Assembly (NCBI GenBank): GCA_963762145.1
Contig: CAVXJS010000009.1
Span: forward strand, 224,001 to 288,000
Length of the DNA stretch: 64,000 nucleotides
Source of the DNA: an uncultured Candidatus Rokubacteria bacterium
GTDB lineage: Bacteria > Methylomirabilota > Methylomirabilia > Rokubacteriales > CSP1-6
Direction: 5' to 3'
Position 1 is the stretch's first letter, and every line of letters starts with the position of its first letter. The notes under the pieces were generated by a model. It had not been told where the DNA came from. It worked only from the letters and a program-made list of their open reading frames with translations, and made no database searches. This document shows positions 31,451 through 43,032 of this stretch, in pieces. The translations under genes were made by a program, and so were the position numbers.

Positions 31451-34400
31451 ATGAAAGTCGCCCGGCGATTCACCCGAGAAGGCCAGAGTCCGTACGCGGG
31501 CATCCAGTTCGACCAGCGAGTGTCGGAGATCAAGAACCCGGACGGCTCCACGGTCTTCCGCCAGGACGGGATCTCGGTGCCGGCCGGGTGGTCGGCGGTG
31601 GCCACCGACATCCTGGCCCAGAAATACTTCCGGAAGTCCGGGGTGCCGCAGTATGCCGCGGACGGCAAGCCCCTGCTGGACCGTGACGGTCGGCCGGTGC
31701 TGGGCGGCGAGCGGGATGCCCGGCAGGTGTTCCACCGCCTGGCCGGCTGCTGGATGCACTGGGGCGAGAAGTACGGCTACTTCGACACCCCCTCTGACGC
31801 GCGGGCCTTCTACGACGAGCTCTGCTACATGCTCGCGGCCCAGGTCGCGGCCCCGAACTCGCCGCAGTGGTTCAACACCGGGCTCCACTACGCCTACGGG
31901 CTCTCCGGCCCGGCCCAGGGCCACCACTACGTCGACCCGGACACGCGGCGTCCTGACGCGGGCCACCTCCGCCTACGAGCGGCCGCAGCCGCACGCCTGC
32001 CAGCCCTACCACGCCCTGATCTCCACGCCCGAGGGCCCGATCCCGATCGGGCAGATCGTGACCAAGAACCAGGTCGGCCTGGAAGTCTACGACGGCCGGG
32101 ACGAGGGCATCGGCACGACGCGGGTGGTGGCGGTCAAGGAGAACGGCGAGAAGGCGGTCTTCCGCATCGAGCTCCGCAACGGCGTGGCGGTCGAGGCCAC
32201 CGGCGATCACCTGGTCTACGCGATCGCCAACGGCGTGGGCGCCTGGCGCCGGGTGGACGAGGTGGAGCCGGGCGCGGCCCTGCGCCTGTCCACGCGGACC
32301 GACGTGCGCCTGGACTCCTACCACACCGAGGTGGACGAGGCGGCCCTGGTCGGGTGGCTGCAGGCCGACGGCTTCGCGGGCCAGGACGGGCTCAGCACCG
32401 AGCACAGCCTGGCCGTCGAGTTCACCACCATCGACAAGGACGAGCTCGACTTCATCGTCGAGCGGGTCCACCGCGTGTTCGATGGCGCGCACTACCACGT
32501 CCGCTCGATGGAGACGCGCACCCCGGGGCTCGACATCCACCGGATCCGCCTGTACGGCGAGCCGCTACGGCCCTTCGTGGACAAGTACGGCCTGCTCCGC
32601 TCGAGCGCCGACCACGTGGTGCCGGCGAACATCTTGCGAAGCGGCCGCGACGCCCAGGCCGCGTACCTGCGCGCCCTCTTCCAGGCCCAGGGCACGGTCA
32701 GCCTGCGGTCGTACTGGGCCCGCCAGGCCGACGTCACGCTCACCACGATCTCGGCCGCGCTCGCCCACGGGGTGCAGGCCCTCCTGCTCAACATGGGCAT
32801 CTACGCGAAGCTGGGGCGGGGCGCCGAGACCCGGGAGAGCCGCCGCACCCCCTTCATCGTCTCGATCGTCCACGCGGAGTCGCGGGCCCGGTTCCGGGAC
32901 CTGATCGGCTTCGTCTCCGACGACAAGCGCGAGAAGCTCGACACCGCCTGCTCCGACCAGTTCGCGGGCAAGAAGCTCCCCGCGCTGCGCGACGAGACGG
33001 TGGTACGGGTGGAGTGCGTGGGCGTGCAGCCGGTCTTCGACATCCAGACCGAGAGCGGGCAGTACCTCTCCAACAACGTCATCGTCCACAACTGCTTCAT
33101 CCAGTCCGTCTCCGACGATCTGGTCAACGACGGCGGCATCATGGACCTCTGGACCCGCGAGGCCCGCATCTTCAAGTACGGCTCGGGCAGCGGGACCAAC
33201 TTCTCCAACCTGCGCGGCGAGAACGAGCCGCTCTCGGGCGGGGGCAAGTCCTCCGGGCTGATGTCGTTCCTCCGCATCGGCGACCGCGCGGCGGGGGCCA
33301 TCAAGTCGGGCGGCACGACCCGGCGGGCGGCCAAGATGGTGATCCTCAACCTCGACCATCCGGACATCCTGACCTTCATCCGGTGGAAGGTGGTGGAGGA
33401 GCAGAAGGTCGCGGCGCTGGTCAGCGGCTCGCGCATGACCAAGCGGCGGCTGCAGGCGGTGCTGGCCGCGGTGCGCACCCCGGCGGGCATCGAGGCCGAC
33501 CCGCGCCAGAACCCGGCGCTGCGCTCGGCGGTCCGCGAGGCGCGCGCGGCCCTCGTGCCCGAGGGCTACATCCAGCGCGTGCTGCTCCTGGCCGCCCAGG
33601 GCGTGCGCGAGATCCACTTCCCGGAGTACGACACCGACTGGGACAGCGAGGCCTACTACACGGTCTCCGGCCAGAACTCCAACAACAGCGTGCGCGTGCC
33701 CAACGCCTTCTTCGACGTGCTCGCGCGCCGGGGCCAGTGGGAGCTCAAGCGCCGCACCGACGGCAAGTCGCGCGGGCTCGGTACCCGCCGAGCAGCTCTG
33801 GGACGAGATCGCGCACGCGGCCTGGGCCTGCGCCGATCCCGGCGTCCAGTACGACACCACGATCAACGAGTGGCACACCTGCCCCGAGGACGGGCGCATC
33901 AACGCCAGCAACCCGTGCGTGACCGGCGACACCCTGGTGGCCACCGCGGACGGCTGGCAGCGCATCGACGCCCTCGTGGGCAAGACCGCGCGCATCATCG
34001 GCTCGGACGGCGCGCCGCATCTCGTGACCCGCATCTTCCCGACCGGCCGCAAGCCGGTGTTCGATCTCCGGACGCGCCTCGGGTACCGGGTGCGCATCAC
34101 CGCCGACCACAAGGTCCTGACGGTGGGCCGCGGCGACGTGCCGGTGGCCGACCTCACGGCCGGCAATCGCCTCATGCTGCGCGGGCCCGGGCTTCGGCCG
34201 GCGCGCCCTCGCCACCGAGCTGGCCCTGGGCGTCGGGGTGGCGGCGGCGGAAGGGCTACCTCACCCAGTCGGTCGTCCTCGGGCGCGCGCAGGAGTCGCT
34301 CGTGCTCAGCACCGACGCGGGGGAGTCTCCGATCCTGGCCGCGGTCGCGGAGGCGGTCCACGCCAGCCGCGACCGCGCTCCAGGCGGTGGGCGGCGCTCG

Positions 34401-37138
34401 GCCGCCAGGCCGGCTCCGGCGTCATCACCCGGACCGCGGCCACCGCGCGTCTCATGCTCGAGCAACCGCCTCTGCGGTGGCGGTCTTCCGCGAGTTCGCG
34501 ATCCTCGACGAGGGCGCGGCGGCGATCCGCTTCACTCCCGCCGTCTTCGACCTGGACCGGCCGGCCCTGGCCGCGGTGCTCCGCGGTCTCTTCACCGCGG
34601 ACGCCACCGTGGCCAACTACGGCGAGCAGTCGCGCTACGTCTCGCTGGACTCGACGTCGCTCGAGCTGCTGCGCCAGACCCAGCTCCTCCTGCTCGCCTT
34701 CGGCATCAAGGCGCGGCTCTACGAGGACACGCGGCTCGCCGAGGCCACGGCGGCGCGGCCCCATCCGACCCACTCGCTGCGCATCAGCCGCGCGTCCTGC
34801 CCGCTCTTCGAGCAGGCGATCGGCTTCCACGCGGCGAGCCCGAAGGCGCAGGCCCTGGCTCAGCTCAACGGCGACGAGCCGGTGGCGGGCGAGGAGCTGA
34901 CCGACGAGGTGCTCGCCATCGAGCCGGCGGGCGAGGCGGACGTGTTCGACCTCACCGAGGAGGTCACCCACCACTTCGTGGCGGGCGGGCTCGTCGTGCA
35001 CAACTGCTCGGAGTACCTCTTCCTCGACGACACCGCGTGCAACCTGGCGTCCATCAACGTGGTGAAGTTCCTGCAGCGAGGACGGCAGCTTCGACGTGGA
35101 CGGCTTCCGCCACGCCTGCCGCCTGTGGACCTCGGTGCTCGAGATCAGCGTCCTGATGGCGGCCTACCCGAGCCCCTCGATCGCCCAGCGGAGCTGGGAC
35201 TTCCGCACCCTGGGCCTGGGCTACGCCAACATGGGCACGGTGCTCATGCGCCGGGGCATCCCCTACGATTCTCCGGAGGCGACCGCCATCTGCGGCGCGA
35301 TGACCGCGATCATGTGCGGCGAGGCCTACGCGACCTCGGCCGAGATGGCGCGGGACCTCGGGCCCTTCCCCGGCTACCAGAAGAACCACGAGCACATGCT
35401 GCGCGTGATGCGCAACCACCGGCGGGCCGCCTACGGCGTCGCCGCGGTGGAGTACGAGGGGCTCAGCATCACCCCGCTCGGCATCGATCCCGCGCACTGC
35501 CCGGCCCCGCTGCTCCAGGCCGCGCGCGAGACCTGGGACCGGGCGGTCGGGCTCGGCGAGCAACACGGCTACCGCAACGCCCAGGTCACGGTGCTGGCTC
35601 CGACCGGCACCATCGGCCTCGTGATGGATTGCGACACCACCGGCATCGAGCCCGACTTCTCGCTCGTGAAGTTCAAGAAGCTCGCGGGCGGCGGCTACTT
35701 CAAGATCATCAACCAGAGCCTGCCCCTGGCGCTGGAGACGCTCGGCTACACCCCCGTCGAGATCGACGACATCGTGGCCTACTGCGTCGGCCACAAGACC
35801 CTCCGGGGCGCGCCGTTCATCAACCACGACACGCTCCGGGCCAAGGGCTTCGACGACGCGGGGCTGCAGCGGCTGGAAGCTTCGATCGAGACCGCGTTCG
35901 ACATCACCTTCGCCTTCAACGCCTGGACCCTCGGCGAGGGCTACGTGGCGTCGCGGCTCGGCATCAACGACGCGCAGCTCGCCGAGTGGAACGGCAACCT
36001 GCTCCGCGCGCTGGGCTTCACCCCCGCCGAGATCGAGGCGGCCAACGACTACTGCTGCGGCACCATGACCGTCGAGGGCGCGCCGCTGCTGAAGGCCGCG
36101 CATCTGCCCGTCTTCGACTGCGCCAACCGCTGCGGCAAGCGGGGCACGCGCTTCATCGCCACCGAGGCGCACATCCGGATGATGGCGGCGGCCCAGCCAT
36201 TCATCTCGGGCGCCATCAGCAAGACCATCAACATGCCGATGGACGCCACCATCGAGGACGTGAAGTGGGCCTACGACCTCTCCTGGCGCGGCATGCTCAA
36301 GGCGGTGGCCCTCTACCGCGACGGGTCCAAGCTCTCGCAGCCGCTCAACTCCACGACGGACGAGGAGGAAGAGCAGGCGGCGGCCGCGGACGTGGAGGCG
36401 GTGGCCGAGAAGATGACCGAGCGGGTGGTCACCCAGTACCTCCGCGAGCGGCATCGCCTGCCCGACCGGCGCTCCGGCTACACCCAGAAGGCGGTGGTGG
36501 GCGGCCACAAGGTCTACCTGCGCACCGGCGAGTACCAGGACGGGACGGTCGGCGAGATCTTCCTCGACATGCACAAGGAAGGGGCGGCCTTCCGCTCCCT
36601 GATGAACTGCTTCGCGATCGCGATCTCCCTCGGCCTGCAGCACGGCGTGCCGCTCGACGAGTTCGTGGACGCGTTCGTGTTCACCCGGTTCGAGCCGAAC
36701 GGGATGGTGAAGGGCAACGATCGCATCAAGATGTCCACCTCGGTCATCGACTACGTCTTCCGCGAGCTCGCCATCACCTATCTCGGGCGCACCGATCTCT
36801 CGCACGTGCCCGAGGAGGATCTGCGCGCGGACGCCATCGGCAGCCGGCCCGGCGAGGGCCCGGTGTCCAGCGCCCCGTCCATTCCGCTGGCGATGGAGGT
36901 GACCGCGCCGGAGCCCGCACCCCGTCCGGCTCCCGCGCCGGTGACCGCCCGCGCCGCCGCCCCGGTGAGCGGGGGCAGCGGTCCCCTGGCCGAGATGAAG
37001 CTGCTCTCTGCGTCCGAGATGGCCCGACTCAAGGGCTACGAAGGCGACCCGTGCGGCGACTGCGGGCAGTTCACCATGGTGCGCAACGGCACCTGCCTCA
37101 AGTGCATCACCTGCGGCACCACCACCGGCTGCTCATAG
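31451..37138 (+). CDS. nrdJ: class II (adenosylcobalamin-dependent) ribonucleotide reductase with two inteins and C-terminal TSCPD/Zn-ribbon; several frameshifts
   Basis: [10 protein letters not shown]; [11 protein letters not shown]; PQPHA[C]FIQSV; [12 protein letters not shown]; [13 protein letters not shown]; SNP[C][15 protein letters not shown]; LGLGYAN; APTGTI; GAISKTIN; YRDGSK; [22 protein letters not shown]. Confidence 0.95.
31998..33092 (+). mobile_element. intein 1 in NrdJ (365 aa) with a LAGLIDADG-type endonuclease domain
   Basis: Begins [10 protein letters not shown] after PQPHA; block [10 protein letters not shown]; LVGWLQADG; [10 protein letters not shown]; VFDIQT...NNVIVHN|C. 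Confidence 0.93.
33916..35004 (+). mobile_element. intein 2 in NrdJ (about 363 aa) with a degenerate LAGLIDADG domain; internal compensating frameshifts
   Basis: Begins [10 protein letters not shown] after NASNP; block [11 protein letters not shown]; LRGLFTADA; [19 protein letters not shown]|CSEY. Confidence 0.93.
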
Positions 37139-37151
37139 CCCTGGCGACCGG

Positions 37152-37239
37152 CCCCTCACCCTGCCCTCTCCCCCTCCCGGGGGAGAGGGTTCTTGATTCT
37201 TCCCCCTCTCCTCTCCGGGGAGAGGGTAAGGGTGAGGGG
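37152..37239. repeat. BoxC-like repeat, copy 3 (two inverted units) after nrdJ
   Basis: CCCCTCACCCTGCCCTCTCCCCC..GGGGGAGAGGG followed by CCCTCTCC..GGGGAGAGGGTAAGGGTGAGGGG. Confidence 0.75.
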
Positions 37240-37262
37240 CTCCGAACACAGGGGCGCTGGGC

Positions 37263-38885
37263 GTGACCACCCGCTGGCCCGAGGCCCGCGCCCCGCGCGG
37301 CATGGTGGCCACCCCGCACCTGCTGGCGACCCAGTCCGGCCTGGCCGCGCTGCGCGCGGGCGGCAATGCGCTCGACGCGGCGATCGCGGCGGCGGCCACC
37401 ATCGCGGTGGTCTACCCGCACATGAACGGCCTCGGCGGCGACAACGTGTGGCTCATCTACGACGCCCGCCAGCAGCGGCTTCGCGCGCTCTGCGCGGTGG
37501 GTCGCGCCGCCCGCGCGGCCAGCATCGACTGGTACGCGGCGCGGGGGATCAGCGGCGCCCTCCCCTCACGCGGCGGGCCCGCCGCGCTGACCGTGCCGGC
37601 GGCGGTGGACGGCTGGTGGCAAGCGCACGAGTACAGCCGGGGCGCGATGGGCTCGCCGGTGGGCTGGAAGGCGCTGCTGGCCGACGCGATCCTCTACGCG
37701 CGCGAGGGATTCCAGGCTTCCGACGGCCAGCGCGTCCCGCCGCCCCGCGAGCCCGATCTCTTCACCGAGCGCGCGCCCACGGAGATTCGCCGCGCGCTCT
37801 GGCCGCTCTACCACCCGGACGCCCTGCGCCGTGGGCCGCTGGTGCAGCGCGATCTGGCCCGCACGCTCGAGGCAGTGCGCGACGGGGGCGCGGAGGGCTT
37901 CTACCACGGCGACGTCGCCCGGCGGCTCGTGGCCGCTGCCGCCGCCGTGGGCAGCCCGCTCGCGGCCGAGGATCTGGCCGAGCATCGCTCGGACTGGATG
38001 GAGCCCCTCCGCATCGCGTACGCGGAGGGGCACGTCGCGAGCTTCCCGCCCCCCACCCAGGGCATCTCGGCCCTCGCGGTGCTCGGCATGACCGAGCGCT
38101 TCGACATGAGCGCCCTGCCCGAGGCCGACTACATCCACGTGCTCGTGGAGGCGACCAAGCTCGCGTTCGACGATCGCGACCGGTACCTCACCGACCCGGC
38201 CCACATGCGCGTGAATCCCGTCGATCTGCTCGCCCCCGAGCGCCTCCAGGCCCGCGCGCGCCTGATCTCGCGCGAGCGCGCGCGCCCGCCCCAGCCCGCC
38301 GCGGCCGCGGGCGGCGACACCATCGCGCTCGTCACCGCCGACCGGGAAGGCAACGCGGTCTCCGTGATCCAGTCGCTCTACTTCACCTTCGGCGCGGCGG
38401 TGCTCGCCGGCGACACCGGCGTGGTGCTGCAGAACCGCGGCGCGTTCTTCTCCCTCGATCCCGGCCACGTCAACGCGCTCGCTCCCGGCAAGCGGACGAT
38501 GCACACGCTGATCCCGTCCATGTACCTCGAGGGCGGGCGGCCGCGCTTCGTCTACGGGACCATGGGCGGCGAGGGCCAGCCCCAGACCCAGGCCGCCATC
38601 CTCACCCGCCGCCTGTTCCGGCGCCTCGGCACGCAGGCCGCGATCGAGGCGCCGCGGTGGCTCTACGGGCGCACCTGGGGAACCGCGTCACGGGCGCTCA
38701 GCCTGGAAGGGCGCTACCCGGCGGAGCTCGCATCGGAGCTGGCCGGCCGCGGGCACGAGGTGACCATCGGGGGGGAGTGGGACGATCTTTTCGGGCACGC
38801 GCACGGCATCTGGGTGGCCCCGGAGAACGGCGGCCTGGTCGGCGCCTCGGACCCGCGGGCCGACGGCGGCGCCCTGGGCTATTGA
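37263..38885 (+). CDS. ggt: gamma-glutamyltransferase family protein
   Basis: GGNALDAAIA; YPHMNGLGGD; GDT nucleophile Thr followed by ADREGNAVS; LQNRG; PGKRTMHTL; GTMGGEGQPQ; ASDPRADG. Confidence 0.92.
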   Translation: MTTRWPEARAPRGMVATPHLLATQSGLAALRAGGNALDAAIAAAATIAVVYPHMNGLGGDNVWLIYDARQQRLRALCAVGRAARAASIDWYAARGISGALPSRGGPAALTVPAAVDGWWQAHEYSRGAMGSPVGWKALLADAILYAREGFQASDGQRVPPPREPDLFTERAPTEIRRALWPLYHPDALRRGPLVQRDLARTLEAVRDGGAEGFYHGDVARRLVAAAAAVGSPLAAEDLAEHRSDWMEPLRIAYAEGHVASFPPPTQGISALAVLGMTERFDMSALPEADYIHVLVEATKLAFDDRDRYLTDPAHMRVNPVDLLAPERLQARARLISRERARPPQPAAAAGGDTIALVTADREGNAVSVIQSLYFTFGAAVLAGDTGVVLQNRGAFFSLDPGHVNALAPGKRTMHTLIPSMYLEGGRPRFVYGTMGGEGQPQTQAAILTRRLFRRLGTQAAIEAPRWLYGRTWGTASRALSLEGRYPAELASELAGRGHEVTIGGEWDDLFGHAHGIWVAPENGGLVGASDPRADGGALGY

Positions 38886-38904
38886 GGGCCTCTCCTCCCT
38901 ATTT

Positions 38905-38939
38905 CCCTCTCCCCTCAGGGGAGAGGGCAGGGTGAGGGG
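38905..38939. repeat. BoxC-like repeat, copy 4, between convergent genes
   Basis: CCCTCTCCCC-TCA-GGGGAGAGGGCAGGGTGAGGGG. Confidence 0.75.
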
Positions 38940-38959
38940 TGGTCGACGGTGAGGGGCGG

Positions 38960-40573
38960 CTACGCGTTGCCGCCGGCCAGGGCCTTGTAGAGCTCGAGCC
39001 CCACCTGCGACAGATCCGACCGGGTCTCGATCGGCAGTCCGGCAACGGTCCACGCACCGAGGCCGCCCTTCAAGATCCTCACGTCCTTGAAGCCCATCTT
39101 TCTGAGGTCGCGCGCCACCCGGGCGCTGGTCTCTTCGTCGGGTCAGGTACAGTAGGCCACCACGGGCCGCGTCATGTCGAGGTCGAGGCCGGCCAGGCTG
39201 CCGGGCAGGTCCTCGGGCGTCACGCGCACCGAGCCGGGAATCTTGAGCGGGAGCTTCTCGTAGGCGTCGACGTTGCGGGCATCGAGGATGGTCGGCACCT
39301 TGCCGCTCTCCATCATCCGAACCACCTCGAACGGCTGCACCCGGTAGCGGTTCTTGTTCCAGCGATGCAGCCACTGGCCGCCGAATCCACCCGCGCTCAG
39401 GAACGTGACCCCGATCGCCACCCAGAACCACGGGAACGGCTTGGGCGGCGGATTCTTCACGTACTCGCGCGTCTCGACCAGCTTGCGCCGGACATCGGGC
39501 AGGTTCGGGTGGAGCTTGTCGGCCTCCTCGAAGCGCCGCAGGGCGCCGGGGTAGTCCTCGGCGTAGAAGGCGGTCAGGCCCGCATACCAGACGTCGTTGA
39601 ACTTGCTGCTTCCGTTGATCTTCACCGGGGTGCCGCGCACGAAGTCGGTCACCGCCGCCGACGGGATCACGAAGTTGAAGCCCTGGACGATGGCGCCCTC
39701 CGCGCCCGGCGCCAGCGAGACGAAGGTGAGGACGCCCACCACCTTGCCCCGGTCGTCCACCGTCGGACCACCCGAGTTCCCCCACGCGGCCGAGGCATCG
39801 GTCTGGATGAGGGGATTGTTGCTCGCGTCGGCCTGGATCGCGGAGACCGCCCCATTGGTCACCACGGAGTCGACCATGGCGGACTTGCTGAGCAGCTCGT
39901 GGGAGAGCACCACGCCCGGGAACCCCAGGATGTGCACGGGATCGCCGACCTGGACACCGCGAGAGTCGGCCAGGGGCAGCATCGGGAAGGAGTCCCCGTC
40001 GACCTTCAGGAGGGCGAGGTCCTTGGCGGACATCTCGCTCACCGGCGGGCTGTACTTCTTCACGGCGGCGCTGAGCCGGCCCTTGGCGGTGACCACGAAG
40101 ATCTGGGGCTGGAGGTTGACCTTGACGGTCGGCAGCACCGCGTCGAGCAGCCTTCGCTTGGCCGCCTCCTCGCGATCCGGCGCATCCCCCGGCTGCAGCC
40201 CCATCTTCTTGAGCATCTGCGGCAGGCACGCCGAGGTAACCGCCCGCTGGGCCTGCTGGTTCGCCAGCCAGCGGGGCGGCTCGTGGGCCGGCTGGACGAC
40301 GTGGCCGTTGGTGATCAGCCAGCCGTCGGCGTCCAGGAACCAGCCGGTGCCGGTCTCCCGGAAGACGGGCGGGGTGATCTTCTGGGGCCCGGCGCCGGCC
40401 CCGCAGTCGAGGGTGACCTCGGAGGCCACCTCGGCCACCACCAGCACCACCGCCGGCTTGGCGCGCTGAATGGCCTCCTGGACGGTGATGGGCTTCTGGG
40501 CCGAGGCCGCGGAGGGGAACGACGCGGCCGCCAGCACGACGGCCGTCCCGAACAGCGCTGAACGCAGTATCAT
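38960..40573 (-). CDS. trypsin-like serine protease-TM-rhodanese fusion; probable selenoprotein (UGA at 39143-39145 read as Sec)
   Basis: Signal peptide; GTGWF..LITNGHV; DLALLK; GNSGGP; TPR-like helix pair; TM (FPWFWVAIGVTFLSAGG); rhodanese ILDAR..KIPGS..VVAYCT-TGA-PDEETSARVARDLRKMGFKDVRILKGGLGAWTVAGLPIE...TAG at 38960. Confidence 0.85.
39104..39142 (-). promoter_or_regulatory. candidate bacterial SECIS hairpin
   Basis: Immediately 3' of the UGA: CCCGACGAAGAGACCA-GCGCC-CGGGU-GGCGC-GCGACCUC. The stem starts about 16 nt after the UGA and has a G-rich apical loop. Confidence 0.55.
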
Positions 40574-40611
40574 AGGCCCACTGCGGACCATTCTACACTG
40601 AGTCAGGAGCC

Positions 40612-41004
40612 ATGAGCCGGCCGATCGGGGAAGTGCCGACGAGAACGTTCCAGCCCGGCGACGTCATCTTTCGCGAGGGTGACGACGCCAAGGGCGAAGC
40701 GTTCATGGTCCACGTGGGCCGCGTGGACATCCGCAAGCAGATCGGCGGCGAGGAGCGTCTGCTGCGCACGCTCGCCAAGGGCGAGCTGCTCGGGCACATC
40801 GCGCTCTTCCGCAACGCGCCCCGCTCCGCGAGCGCGATCGCGGCCGACGCGGTCACCCTGATGGTCATCCCCGCCAACCGGCTCGATCACCTGGTCCGGG
40901 CGAACCCCGCGCTCGCGCTCGCGCTGATCCGCGATCTGGCCGTCAACCTGCTCGCAGCGGAAGATCGGCTGCGCGAAGCCGAGCAGAAGAGGAAACCGGA
41001 GTAG
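40612..41004 (+). CDS. stand-alone cyclic nucleotide-binding domain protein
   Basis: FQPGDVIFREGD; GRVDI; GELLGHIALF..PRSASA. His replaces the usual Glu in the phosphate-binding cassette. Confidence 0.88.
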   Translation: MSRPIGEVPTRTFQPGDVIFREGDDAKGEAFMVHVGRVDIRKQIGGEERLLRTLAKGELLGHIALFRNAPRSASAIAADAVTLMVIPANRLDHLVRANPALALALIRDLAVNLLAAEDRLREAEQKRKPE

Positions 41005-41019: not shown

Positions 41020-42241
41020 TCAGGCGGTGGCGACGAGACCGAAGGTCTCGGCCGCGACGCCCGCGACGTGTCGCCCGATGGCCAGCGACGCGGTGGCGCC
41101 CGGGGAGGGCGCGTTGACCACGTGCACGGCGCCCGCCGTCACGCTGATCTTGAAATCGTCGATGAGCGCGCCGTCCGGGGCGACCGCCTGCGCGCGCACT
41201 CCCGCCCCACCCCGCTCGAGATCGGACGCCGCGATGTCGGGGACCAGCTTCTGCAGCGAGCGCACGAAGGCGGTCTTGCTCGCCGAGCGGTACATCTCGA
41301 AGGCGCCCACCCGCCAGTACTTGCGCGCCATGTGCCAGAAGCCCGCGTAGCCGAGCGTGCCGAGGAGCTCGCCGGGCCGCACCGTGCCGAGCGTGTAGCC
41401 CTCGCGCGCGAAGGCCAGCACCGCGTTCGGGCCCGCCTCCACGTCGCCGTGGATGGTGCGGGTGAAGTGGACGCCCAGGAACGGGAACTCGGGATCCGGA
41501 ACCGGGTAGATGAGCCCGCGCACGATCGAGCGGCGCTCCGGGCGCAGCATGTAGTACTCGCCGCGGAACGGGATGATCCGCACCTCCGGGGTCACTCCCA
41601 TCAGGGCGGCGACCCGATCGGAGTGCAGCCCGGCGCAGTTCACGAGGTGCTTCGCCTCCACCGCGCCCTGCGCGGTCTCGAGCACCAGCGCGCTCCCCTG
41701 CCGCCGGATCGCGCTCACGCCGGCCCCCGTGAGGATGCGGACGCCGCGCTGCTGGAGGAGCTCGGCCATCTTGGCCACCACCTCCATGTAGTCGACGATC
41801 CCGGTCTCGGGCACGTGGATCGCGCGCACCGCGCGGCAGTTCGGCTCGTAGGCGCGCACCTCCTCGGCGGTGAGCATCTTGAGGCCGGCGAGCCCGTTGG
41901 CCTGGCCGCGCTCGTAGATCGTCTGCAAGCCGCGGCAGCTCGTTGGCGTCGGTGGCCACGATGATCTTGCCGCAGCCCTCCCACTTGATGCCGTGGGTGT
42001 CGCAGAACTGCTTCATGCGGCGCGCCCCGTCCACGCAGAGCTTCGCCTTGAGCGAGCCGGGCTTGTAGTAGACCCCGGAGTGGATGACCCCGCTGTTGTG
42101 GCCGGTCTGGTGCGAGCCGAGCTGCGGCTCCTTGTCGAGCAGCACGAGCCGCAGGCGCGGGTGGGCCTCGGTCAGGGCCAGGGCGGTGCCGAGGCCCACG
42201 ATGCCGCCGCCGACGACCGCCAGGTCCGTGGTCTGCGTCAC
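41020..42241 (-). CDS. lhgO: L-2-hydroxyglutarate oxidase, frameshift near 41930
   Basis: VGGGIVG; HQTGHNSGVIHSGVYYKPGSLKAKLC; PFRGEYY; IYPVPDP.FPFLGVH; GVRAQA; NAPSPGAT. Confidence 0.93.
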
Positions 42242-42270
42242 GGGCGCCAGAATACCATCACCCTGGCGAC

Positions 42271-43032
42271 CTACTCCAGCGTCAGGGTGATCGGACAGTG
42301 GTCCGAACCCAGCACGTGGGGCAGGATCGTGGCCGCGCGCACGCGGCCCCGCAGCTCGTCGGAGACGAAGAAGTAGTCGATGCGCCAGCCGGTGTTGCGC
42401 GCCCGCGAGCCCGTCTTGAGGTCCCACCACGTGTAGTGGCCGGGCTCGGGGGTGAAGAGCCGGAACGTGTCGTGATAGCCGGCCGCGATGAACCGCGTCA
42501 CCCACTCGCGCTCGGCGGGCAGGAAGCCCGACGTCCGCTCGTGCTCCTTCGGGCGGGCCAGGTCCACCTCGGTGTGCGCGGTGTTGACGTCGCCGCACAC
42601 CACGATGCCCTTGCCCTGCTTGCGCCGCGATTCGGCGAACGCGAGGAAGGCCTCGTAGAAGGCGAGCTTGTGCTGGACCCGCTCGGGACCCATTCCGCCG
42701 TTCGGGAAGTAGACGTTGAAGAGATGGAAGTCGGGCAGCTCGGTGTGCACCAGCCGCCCCTCGCAATCGAGCACCGGCGAGTCGCAGAGCGTGCCGGCCG
42801 CGATCGGCTCGGGCCTCAGATAGGTCGCCACCCCGCTGTAGCCCTTGCGCTCGGCGAAGCTCCAGTAGCTCCGGTAGCCGAGCGGCGTCCGCATCTCGTC
42901 GGTGACCTGCTCGGCCTGCAGCTTGGTCTCCTGCAGGCAGACCACGTCGGCCGCCTCCGCGCCGAGGATCTCGAGCAGCCCCTTCTTCCACGCGGAGCGG
43001 AGCCCGTTGACGTTCCAGGAGAGGAGCTTCAA
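42271..43032 (-). CDS. xth: exodeoxyribonuclease III
   Basis: SWNVNGLRS; CLQETK; GYSGV; NVYFPNG; GDVNTAH; YTWW; GWRIDYF; SDHCP. Confidence 0.95.
   Translation of the reverse strand: MKLLSWNVNGLRSAWKKGLLEILGAEAADVVCLQETKLQAEQVTDEMRTPLGYRSYWSFAERKGYSGVATYLRPEPIAAGTLCDSPVLDCEGRLVHTELPDFHLFNVYFPNGGMGPERVQHKLAFYEAFLAFAESRRKQGKGIVVCGDVNTAHTEVDLARPKEHERTSGFLPAEREWVTRFIAAGYHDTFRLFTPEPGHYTWWDLKTGSRARNTGWRIDYFFVSDELRGRVRAATILPHVLGSDHCPITLTLE

Follow-up and report, generated by a model that had tools for sequence, protein, structure and literature searches.

Comparative evidence for a hidden selenoprotein linking an HtrA-like membrane protease to a Cys-x-Sec rhodanese and to one part of a split cyclic-nucleotide-binding domain

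A Candidatus Rokubacteria gene with an in-frame TGA is, judged by comparison with its homologues, a real hidden selenoprotein in which an HtrA/DegS-like protease is joined across the membrane to a Cys-x-Sec rhodanese. Comparison of homologues shows that the UGA is conserved, is accompanied by a SECIS element and is read through, and the TGA at 39143-39145 almost certainly encodes selenocysteine. By comparison of split and fused paralogues, a helix at the C-terminal end of the read-through product and the product of the divergent neighbour gene are shown to be two halves of one cyclic-nucleotide-binding domain (CNBD). The initial annotation of this DNA had proposed the selenoprotein; it had missed the split CNBD and the presence of FHA or PilZ modules on the same ectodomain in other lineages.

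The gene spans positions 38960..40573 on the minus strand of the window, by which we mean the whole 64,000-nucleotide stretch analysed. Its frame opens with an ATG at 40573 (an alternative in-frame ATG lies at 40591), reaches the TGA at 39145-39143 in the context VVAYCT-TGA-PDEETSARVA and continues through exactly 60 open codons to a TAG at 38962-38960. Re-deriving the frame from the sequence thus recovered the 60-codon extension to the TAG at 38960 that had been described initially. With the TGA read as selenocysteine, as reading frame and homologues both indicate, the product has 537 amino acids and carries U477 (39143..39145). Nearby genes in the assembly show frameshift-like breaks, so that a lone TGA would not be trustworthy by itself. 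RNA runs contained 7-10% of the words sampled.

The TGA recurs at a single alignment column in a large set of homologues. Matches at E 1e-40 or better were found in 150 of the 158 other genomes of the family, making the protease near-core in an abundant uncultured soil lineage, and other families of the phylum contributed matches in 13 of 21, 1 of 15 and 1 of 1 genomes and in 0 of the remaining 55. We examined 133 loci, comprising 130 from among the best-scoring of those listed (the family search gave the best 150 of 256 matches) and three others; omitting one locus without a rhodanese and three duplicates left 129 homologues, the window's own included. Column 477 is TGA in 68 of these, Ser in 44, Cys in 8 (always TGC), Thr in 6, Ala in 2 and Glu in 1. 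The alternation of Cys and TGA that the initial annotation had put forward as a check is therefore present, and its proposed counter-evidence, homologues that consistently end at YCT, did not appear: TAA or TAG occupies the column in 0 of 129 homologues, and the frame continues past the TGA. In all 33 complete TGA carriers with a C-terminal tail, 59-61 codons follow, and across codons +12 to +38 these 33 differ by 4829 synonymous and 2212 non-synonymous changes counted over pairs that are not independent, a pattern suggesting that coding selection acts downstream of the TGA. In a tree of 126 rows from which the rhodanese was left out, U and non-U states interchange at least 15 times, and selenocysteine appears from this comparison to be dispensable. 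It would tune the putative switch rather than be required for it, as Ser, Thr and Cys forms are common. Sixteen loci of two other families comprise 5 with TGA, 1 with Cys, 5 with Ser and 5 without any rhodanese. The single Glu homologue (L104, G136) has GAA at the column with an intact SECIS, which represents either a recent change or an assembly error.

A SECIS element follows the TGA and tracks it across homologues. Its upper stem-loop (39112..39126, minus strand) consists of a GCGCC/GGCGC stem that begins 17 nt past the TGA and a loop, CGGGT. The hairpin noticed initially about 16 nt after the UGA is thus real, with a 16-nt spacer. According to PMC13188914, bacterial SECIS elements have loops of 3-9 nt, stems of 4-16 bp, a G in the first two loop positions, a distance of 16-37 nt from the UGA and a minimum free energy of -7.5 kcal/mol or below; the corresponding values here are 5 nt, 5 bp, G at position 2, 21 nt and -9.3 to -12.2 kcal/mol. 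In this GC-rich DNA shuffled sequences fold as stably as the hairpin (z -0.10 to 0.09), and we dropped folding energy alone as evidence. Its significance comes from comparison instead: all 68 TGA carriers have the full five-pair stem, against 5 of the 61 other homologues, a contrast whose Fisher values are overstated as kin are not independent. Among rows with the same S-A-x-V-A residues, all 56 TGA carriers preserve both pairs at synonymous positions, against 5 of the 31 others. The loop of TGA carriers always reads N-G-(G/U)-N-N; CGC, a common Arg codon incompatible with this consensus, occurs in 0 of 68 TGA carriers versus 19 of 61 others. All three homologue subtypes described below and five distant TGA copies possess the same pattern.

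The genome encodes the selenocysteine machinery whose presence the initial annotation had asked for, with selA, selB, selC (tRNA-Sec) and selD all above cut-off. The contig carrying the gene also carries selA (577 bits), selB (363 bits) and tRNA-Sec (69 bits, anticodon TCA), while selD lies on a different contig and itself contains an in-frame TGA. Two selD matches exceed the cut-off, at C11:419505-420437 and C14:136744-137655, one with an in-frame TGA and one without. Family-wide, selA was detected in 132 of 159 genomes. It is present in 49 of 60 genomes with a TGA copy and in 39 of 45 genomes whose fetched copies are all non-TGA, and we rejected loss of the machinery as the route to selenocysteine loss. 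Recoding of TGA as tryptophan was also set aside: tRNA-Trp has the anticodon CCA, a tRNA-Sec with TCA is present, TGA ends many normal genes and none of the 129 homologues has Trp at the column. Genuine termination at the TGA, or an error in sequencing, is extremely improbable. The frameshift-like breaks nearby, the reading of the TGA from an assembly and the failure to find selA in 11 of the 60 TGA-bearing genomes would fit such an origin, but a comparable share of genomes throughout the family likewise gave no selA match, which is expected where genomes are incomplete. Against it also stand a TGA at the same column of 67 further homologues, with identities as low as about 45% and always with a SECIS, 5 further TGA copies from two other families with a SECIS in each, and the lack of TAA or TAG at the column. 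The recoding proposed in the initial annotation is accordingly upheld by machinery, homologues and SECIS alike.

The ectodomain is an HtrA/DegS-like protease without a PDZ domain. A predicted signal peptide (residues 1-25, with a hydrophobic core and ending A-S-A; 40499..40573, minus strand as for the whole protein) precedes a trypsin-fold domain with a helical insert (39638..40486), of which Pfam Trypsin_2 covers residues 75-281. Its triad of His91 (40301-40303), Asp185 (40019-40021) and Ser267 (39773-39775) is intact, as initially noted, and is conserved in 126, 126 and 125 of 126 aligned rows, respectively. Cys57 and Cys116 are conserved and probably form a disulfide. In a structure model with Cys substituted for Sec (mean pLDDT 83.6), the protease matches DegS, DegP and DegQ domains, the top Foldseek matches being DegS (E 3.6e-16). 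The model places three helices after the protease, followed by a long continuous helix (382-408). The three helices form a TPR-like stalk (residues 324-373; 39455..39604); for the TPR-like pair of the initial annotation, the model thus shows three helices, and support by sequence is weak (TPR_14 E 0.009, below cut-off). A single membrane helix is predicted at about residues 382-402 (39368..39430), followed by basic residues. It is moderately hydrophobic (Kyte-Doolittle peak 1.32), and FHA-bearing relatives have a clearly hydrophobic segment at the same place. Profiles and model together support the proposed order of protease, TPR-like helices, transmembrane segment and CxU rhodanese, with the signal peptide and transmembrane segment predicted from sequence.

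Like the HtrA proteases DegS, DegP and DegQ, this protein combines a trypsin fold and a His-Asp-Ser triad with GNSGG in a membrane-anchored, periplasm-facing arrangement. It differs from them in having no Pfam match to a PDZ domain anywhere in the protein, in an anchor that is C-terminal rather than N-terminal, and in an added helical insert, a TPR-like stalk and a cytoplasmic domain; its scores against the HtrA NCBIfam models are all far below cut-off. The GOS survey (PMC2398784) describes trypsin-like and 'MucD'/PDZ proteins that are likewise predicted protease-related selenoproteins. In those proteins, as described there, Sec replaces Cys inside the trypsin domain or belongs to a CxxU motif; no rhodanese is involved, and the architecture differs.

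The cytoplasmic domain has a rhodanese fold centred on Cys475-Thr-Sec477 and an invariant Glu480 (39023..39349, minus strand; Pfam, alignment and NCBIfam). The Pfam Rhodanese match (416-509, E 1.5e-11) spans the TGA, and the best NCBIfam family is NF041203, rhodanese_LYCAU (E 4.7e-21), at 71.6 bits for the whole protein and 74.8 for the domain alone, short of the cut-off of 115. NF041203 represents the rhodanese-like selenoprotein 'form 3', which is listed in PMC13188914, has only a predicted function and shares the rhodanese fold and the Y-C-x-U motif; the same CxU type is named 'form 2, CxU' in PMC9312934. That model describes a 126-position protein, whereas the domain in the window is the cytoplasmic end of a membrane protease. 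PMC10135228 assigns Cx4R/T or Cx5R loops to active rhodaneses and treats inactive ones as interaction modules. The DxR motif defined there at the end of strand 1 is present (D431 and R433 in 126 of 126 rows). From Cys475 the loop reads neither Cx4R/T nor Cx5R, C475 being followed by T-U-P-D-E-E, and counting from U477 gives U-x4-T, with these residues helical in the model. The modelled helix starts at 478, directly after U477, and places Glu480 three residues on. Cys475 is kept in 122 of 126 rows (Asp in 3, Gly in 1), and among the 61 non-TGA homologues Ser is the commonest residue at column 477 (44, against 8 with Cys). The persulfide chemistry that had been suggested initially, that of a sulfurtransferase, is not borne out by this combination of a missing Cx4R/T or Cx5R loop, a helix immediately behind U477 and a preference for Ser over Cys. 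In the model, the U477-Glu480 helix start resembles a helix capping box. Capping boxes favour Ser and Thr, and such a likeness would explain how these residues can replace Sec while the fold is kept. On sequence and model we read the domain not as a thiosulfate sulfurtransferase but as a putative interaction domain sensitive to redox state or metals. No solved structure with the same loop was found, the best sequence matches being generic rhodaneses; the Cys-less Alr3790, with a similar D-E-x-T-S stretch, is among them.

Related rhodaneses occur elsewhere in the genome. There are two DedA-rhodanese fusions (L038 at G000:C21:929066, minus strand, and L039 at G000:C9:385904, plus strand; 38% identity), one with C-x-TGA and an identical SECIS and the other with C-x-C. 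TGA rhodanese matches of the DedA-fusion kind are found in many relatives, including a family without the protease, and a further rhodanese-like match with an in-frame TGA lies at G000:C9:694051-694272 (minus strand, L047). DedA-rhodanese fusions likewise hold a related rhodanese directly behind a membrane helix, but their membrane partner is a putative flippase and not a protease, and the rhodanese is given no role in the text available from PMC10127716 and PMC12893004.

A C-terminal tail helix and a divergently encoded protein correspond to two parts of one CNBD. The helix (38975..39007, minus strand), with a G-x-E-L-Y-K core, is the counterpart of the first CNBD helix of fused paralogues. 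The head-to-head neighbour gene (40612..41004, plus strand) encodes a stand-alone 130-aa CNBD without this helix and without a DNA-binding domain, and is the probable partner. By their C-termini the 129 homologues divide into 54 with the tail helix (type A, window included), 38 without a tail (type B) and 37 with a fused CNBD (type C). Type C genes lack TGA in 36 of 37 cases; the lone CNBD-fused homologue with TGA and SECIS is L119 (G172), with 168 codons after the TGA. Type B genes end past the rhodanese, contain TGA in 32 of 38 cases and have a neighbour CNBD in 0 of 38, 27 of them with at least 600 nt of flank. Type A genes contain TGA in 35 of 54 cases and, of the type C extension, retain just the helix in front of the CNBD. 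All 52 complete tails share its G, E, Y and K. Upstream of 44 of the 54 type A genes, at a distance of a few tens of bases, a stand-alone CNBD gene is encoded in head-to-head orientation. Of the 10 others, 3 lie at contig ends and 7 form one clade, in which 5 of 7 genomes encode a helix-less CNBD orthologue elsewhere (50-56% identity) and 2 of 7 yielded none. In 3 nearly complete control genomes without the protease no helix-less CNBD was found (0 of 3), distant CNBDs being the only ones detected.

The CNBD in the window (PF00027, E 1.3e-19) is 47% identical to one fused CNBD, is the best match in this genome for 37 of 37 fused CNBDs and begins just past the position of the first helix of the fused form. 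The fused model has a CRP/PKA-type CNBD fold (Z up to 17). Its helix 117-125 coincides with the N-terminal start of CRP-type chains, for instance where residues 119-248 superimpose on 3kcc_B 9-137 (Z 15.8, rmsd 3.0, 127 aligned), and sequence alignment pairs the helix with its counterpart in PKA regulatory domains. The tail helix thus probably completes the CNBD encoded by the neighbour. We modelled the cytoplasmic part of a 91% identical Cys orthologue together with the window's CNBD and obtained a score of 0.52 versus 0.01 for the best control, with 77% contact agreement and a partner pLDDT of 85 or more. Of 157 solved pairs 116 attain the mark used, as do 2 of 215 mismatched pairs, but the range up to 0.60 contains just 18 of the solved pairs together with both mismatches, and halves of a split domain can pass through likeness to solved CNBDs. 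The model hints at docking of the CNBD on the tail helix. The neighbour shares with CRP/PKA-type CNBDs the fold, the phosphate-binding Arg and a long C-helix, and differs in the placement of the first helix on another protein, in a His for the usual Glu and in the absence of a helix-turn-helix, the 130 aa ending after the C-helix and the CRP model scoring 30.7 versus 266 bits. In the binding cassette the Arg is kept and the Glu, which contributes to cyclic-nucleotide binding, is retained in 25 of 37 fused forms. Its replacement by His in the window suggests that the ligand may not be cAMP. The genome contains 38 class III cyclase matches above cut-off.

The cytoplasmic slot behind the ectodomain appears, from comparison of relatives, to be swappable and to hold ligand-binding domains in turn. 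Among 76 library relatives scanned, mostly long ones, of the 150 matches listed, an FHA domain follows the same ectodomain in 43. This family of protease, TPR, membrane helix and FHA is widespread (P0041, P0042, P0047 and 40 others). In 3 loci a Ser rhodanese is followed by PilZ. The occurrence of FHA, or of rhodanese and PilZ, in distant relatives makes the cytoplasmic part look like a signal input rather than a classic sulfurtransferase. Tail-less forms (38 of 129) and forms without any rhodanese (the 5 of 16 loci in two other families) indicate that neither input is universal.

We tentatively favour, with rather less than full conviction, a single-pass membrane protease controlled from the cytoplasm through its membrane helix, with the Sec/Cys state and a cyclic nucleotide as inputs. 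The CNBD would dock on the tail helix. The association of the cytoplasmic domains would then respond to nucleotide binding and to whether the Cys-x-Sec pair, presumably reactive through the position of Sec at a helix start, is oxidised or holds a metal. This association could pull the membrane helices together or apart and thereby turn the protease up or down, a form of cytoplasmic control that would replace the PDZ control of DegS. The opposite direction, in which the protease domain detects or cleaves an envelope substrate, or cleaves itself, and the rhodanese and CNBD are an output that is released, clustered or exposed, is unlikely. The same architecture and partner data fit it, and the invariant triad and single-pass topology suit either direction; however, FHA, PilZ and CNBD are ligand-binding input domains, and the CNBD here lacks a DNA-binding or enzyme domain. 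Equally doubtful is a tethered independent enzyme, with the CxU rhodanese acting as a thiol/selenol oxidoreductase, a sulfur or selenium carrier or a metal trap and the protease merely as an anchor. The same CxU/CxC domain on DedA membrane proteins of this genome, the retention of Cys475, the U-x4-T reading and a gamma-glutamyltranspeptidase gene that adjoins the protease in 31 tail-bearing loci would favour such an enzyme. The domain nonetheless persists in the 50 of 61 non-TGA homologues that have Ser or Thr in place of Sec and in the 4 rows with Asp or Gly at position 475; counted from Cys475 its loop has neither catalytic form, and a nucleotide sensor is attached to it.

A selenium-supply switch, in which UGA termination yields a short tail-less isoform and the CNBD docks only when selenium is available, is less probable again. 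The tail does lie downstream of the UGA, and the near-complete loss of TGA in CNBD fusions (36 of 37) and PilZ fusions (3 of 3) is expected if readthrough is the bottleneck. But the link between fusion and Sec loss comprises 2 independent pairs, too few to carry it, and for this reason we also set aside fusion of a nucleotide-binding domain as a cause of Sec loss. A product ending at the TGA would moreover contain only the first half of the rhodanese fold, TGA is absent from 19 of the 54 tail-bearing genes, and the retention of TGA in most tail-less genes implies that Sec is selected without any tail. Beyond the favoured reading of control from the cytoplasm, it is conceivable, if somewhat unlikely, that these proteins form a new class of periplasmic proteases, regulated inside-out by exchangeable cytoplasmic sensors (FHA, PilZ, CNBD and CxU rhodanese). 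In the present member a Sec-based redox or metal switch and a cyclic-nucleotide sensor would then act on one protease, and the sensor would be completed in trans by a helix whose synthesis depends on recoding of the UGA. If so, selenium supply would gate second-messenger control of envelope proteolysis.

The individual domains are known; their combination, with a split nucleotide sensor, is undescribed as far as we searched, and new here is the identification of the post-rhodanese helix as the first helix that the head-to-head CNBD lacks. Known-role bacterial selenoproteins are mostly redox enzymes, and Sec seems here to be part of a protease signalling module. Work by Deng et al. reportedly counts 63 selenoproteins in a Methylomirabilota MAG. 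Our full-text literature search returned no description of a protease-rhodanese fusion, a split CNBD or trypsin-FHA membrane proteases, and Haft and Tolstoy 2025, Deng et al. 2026 or their supplements may list the fusion; term searches gave no match in PMC13326102 (main text and supplement) or in the main texts of PMC12013277 and PMC13745706. Of the 150 matches listed from the public protein library, 17 stop exactly at Y/F-C-x, where gene callers cut at the TGA and so hide the rhodanese domain and the docking helix. One named truncated member is titled merely 'trypsin-like peptidase domain-containing protein', and Cys forms are auto-annotated 'S1-C subfamily serine protease/rhodanese-related sulfurtransferase'. 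The natural series of Sec, Cys, Ser and Thr forms with fused, split or absent CNBDs provides ready controls for a non-enzyme contribution of Sec and could show how a PDZ-less HtrA-like protease is controlled.

The divergent starts of protease and CNBD are separated by 38 bp (40574-40611), with -10-like hexamers overlapping on both strands (40590-40599); a sigma-70 promoter scan gave no match. Beyond the CNBD lies an apparently frameshifted gene for an FAD-dependent oxidase-like protein (41020-42300, minus strand), presumably L-2-hydroxyglutarate oxidase-like, and such a gene is found beyond the CNBD in 43 loci. On the other side the gamma-glutamyltranspeptidase gene ggt (37263-38885, plus strand) converges on the protease gene and is flanked by similar purine/pyrimidine-rich palindromic intergenic repeats at 38890-38950 and about 37150-37260. 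Farther out, 31451-37138 (plus strand) holds, as identified by eye, an apparent class II ribonucleotide reductase spread over several frames with two intein-like inserts.
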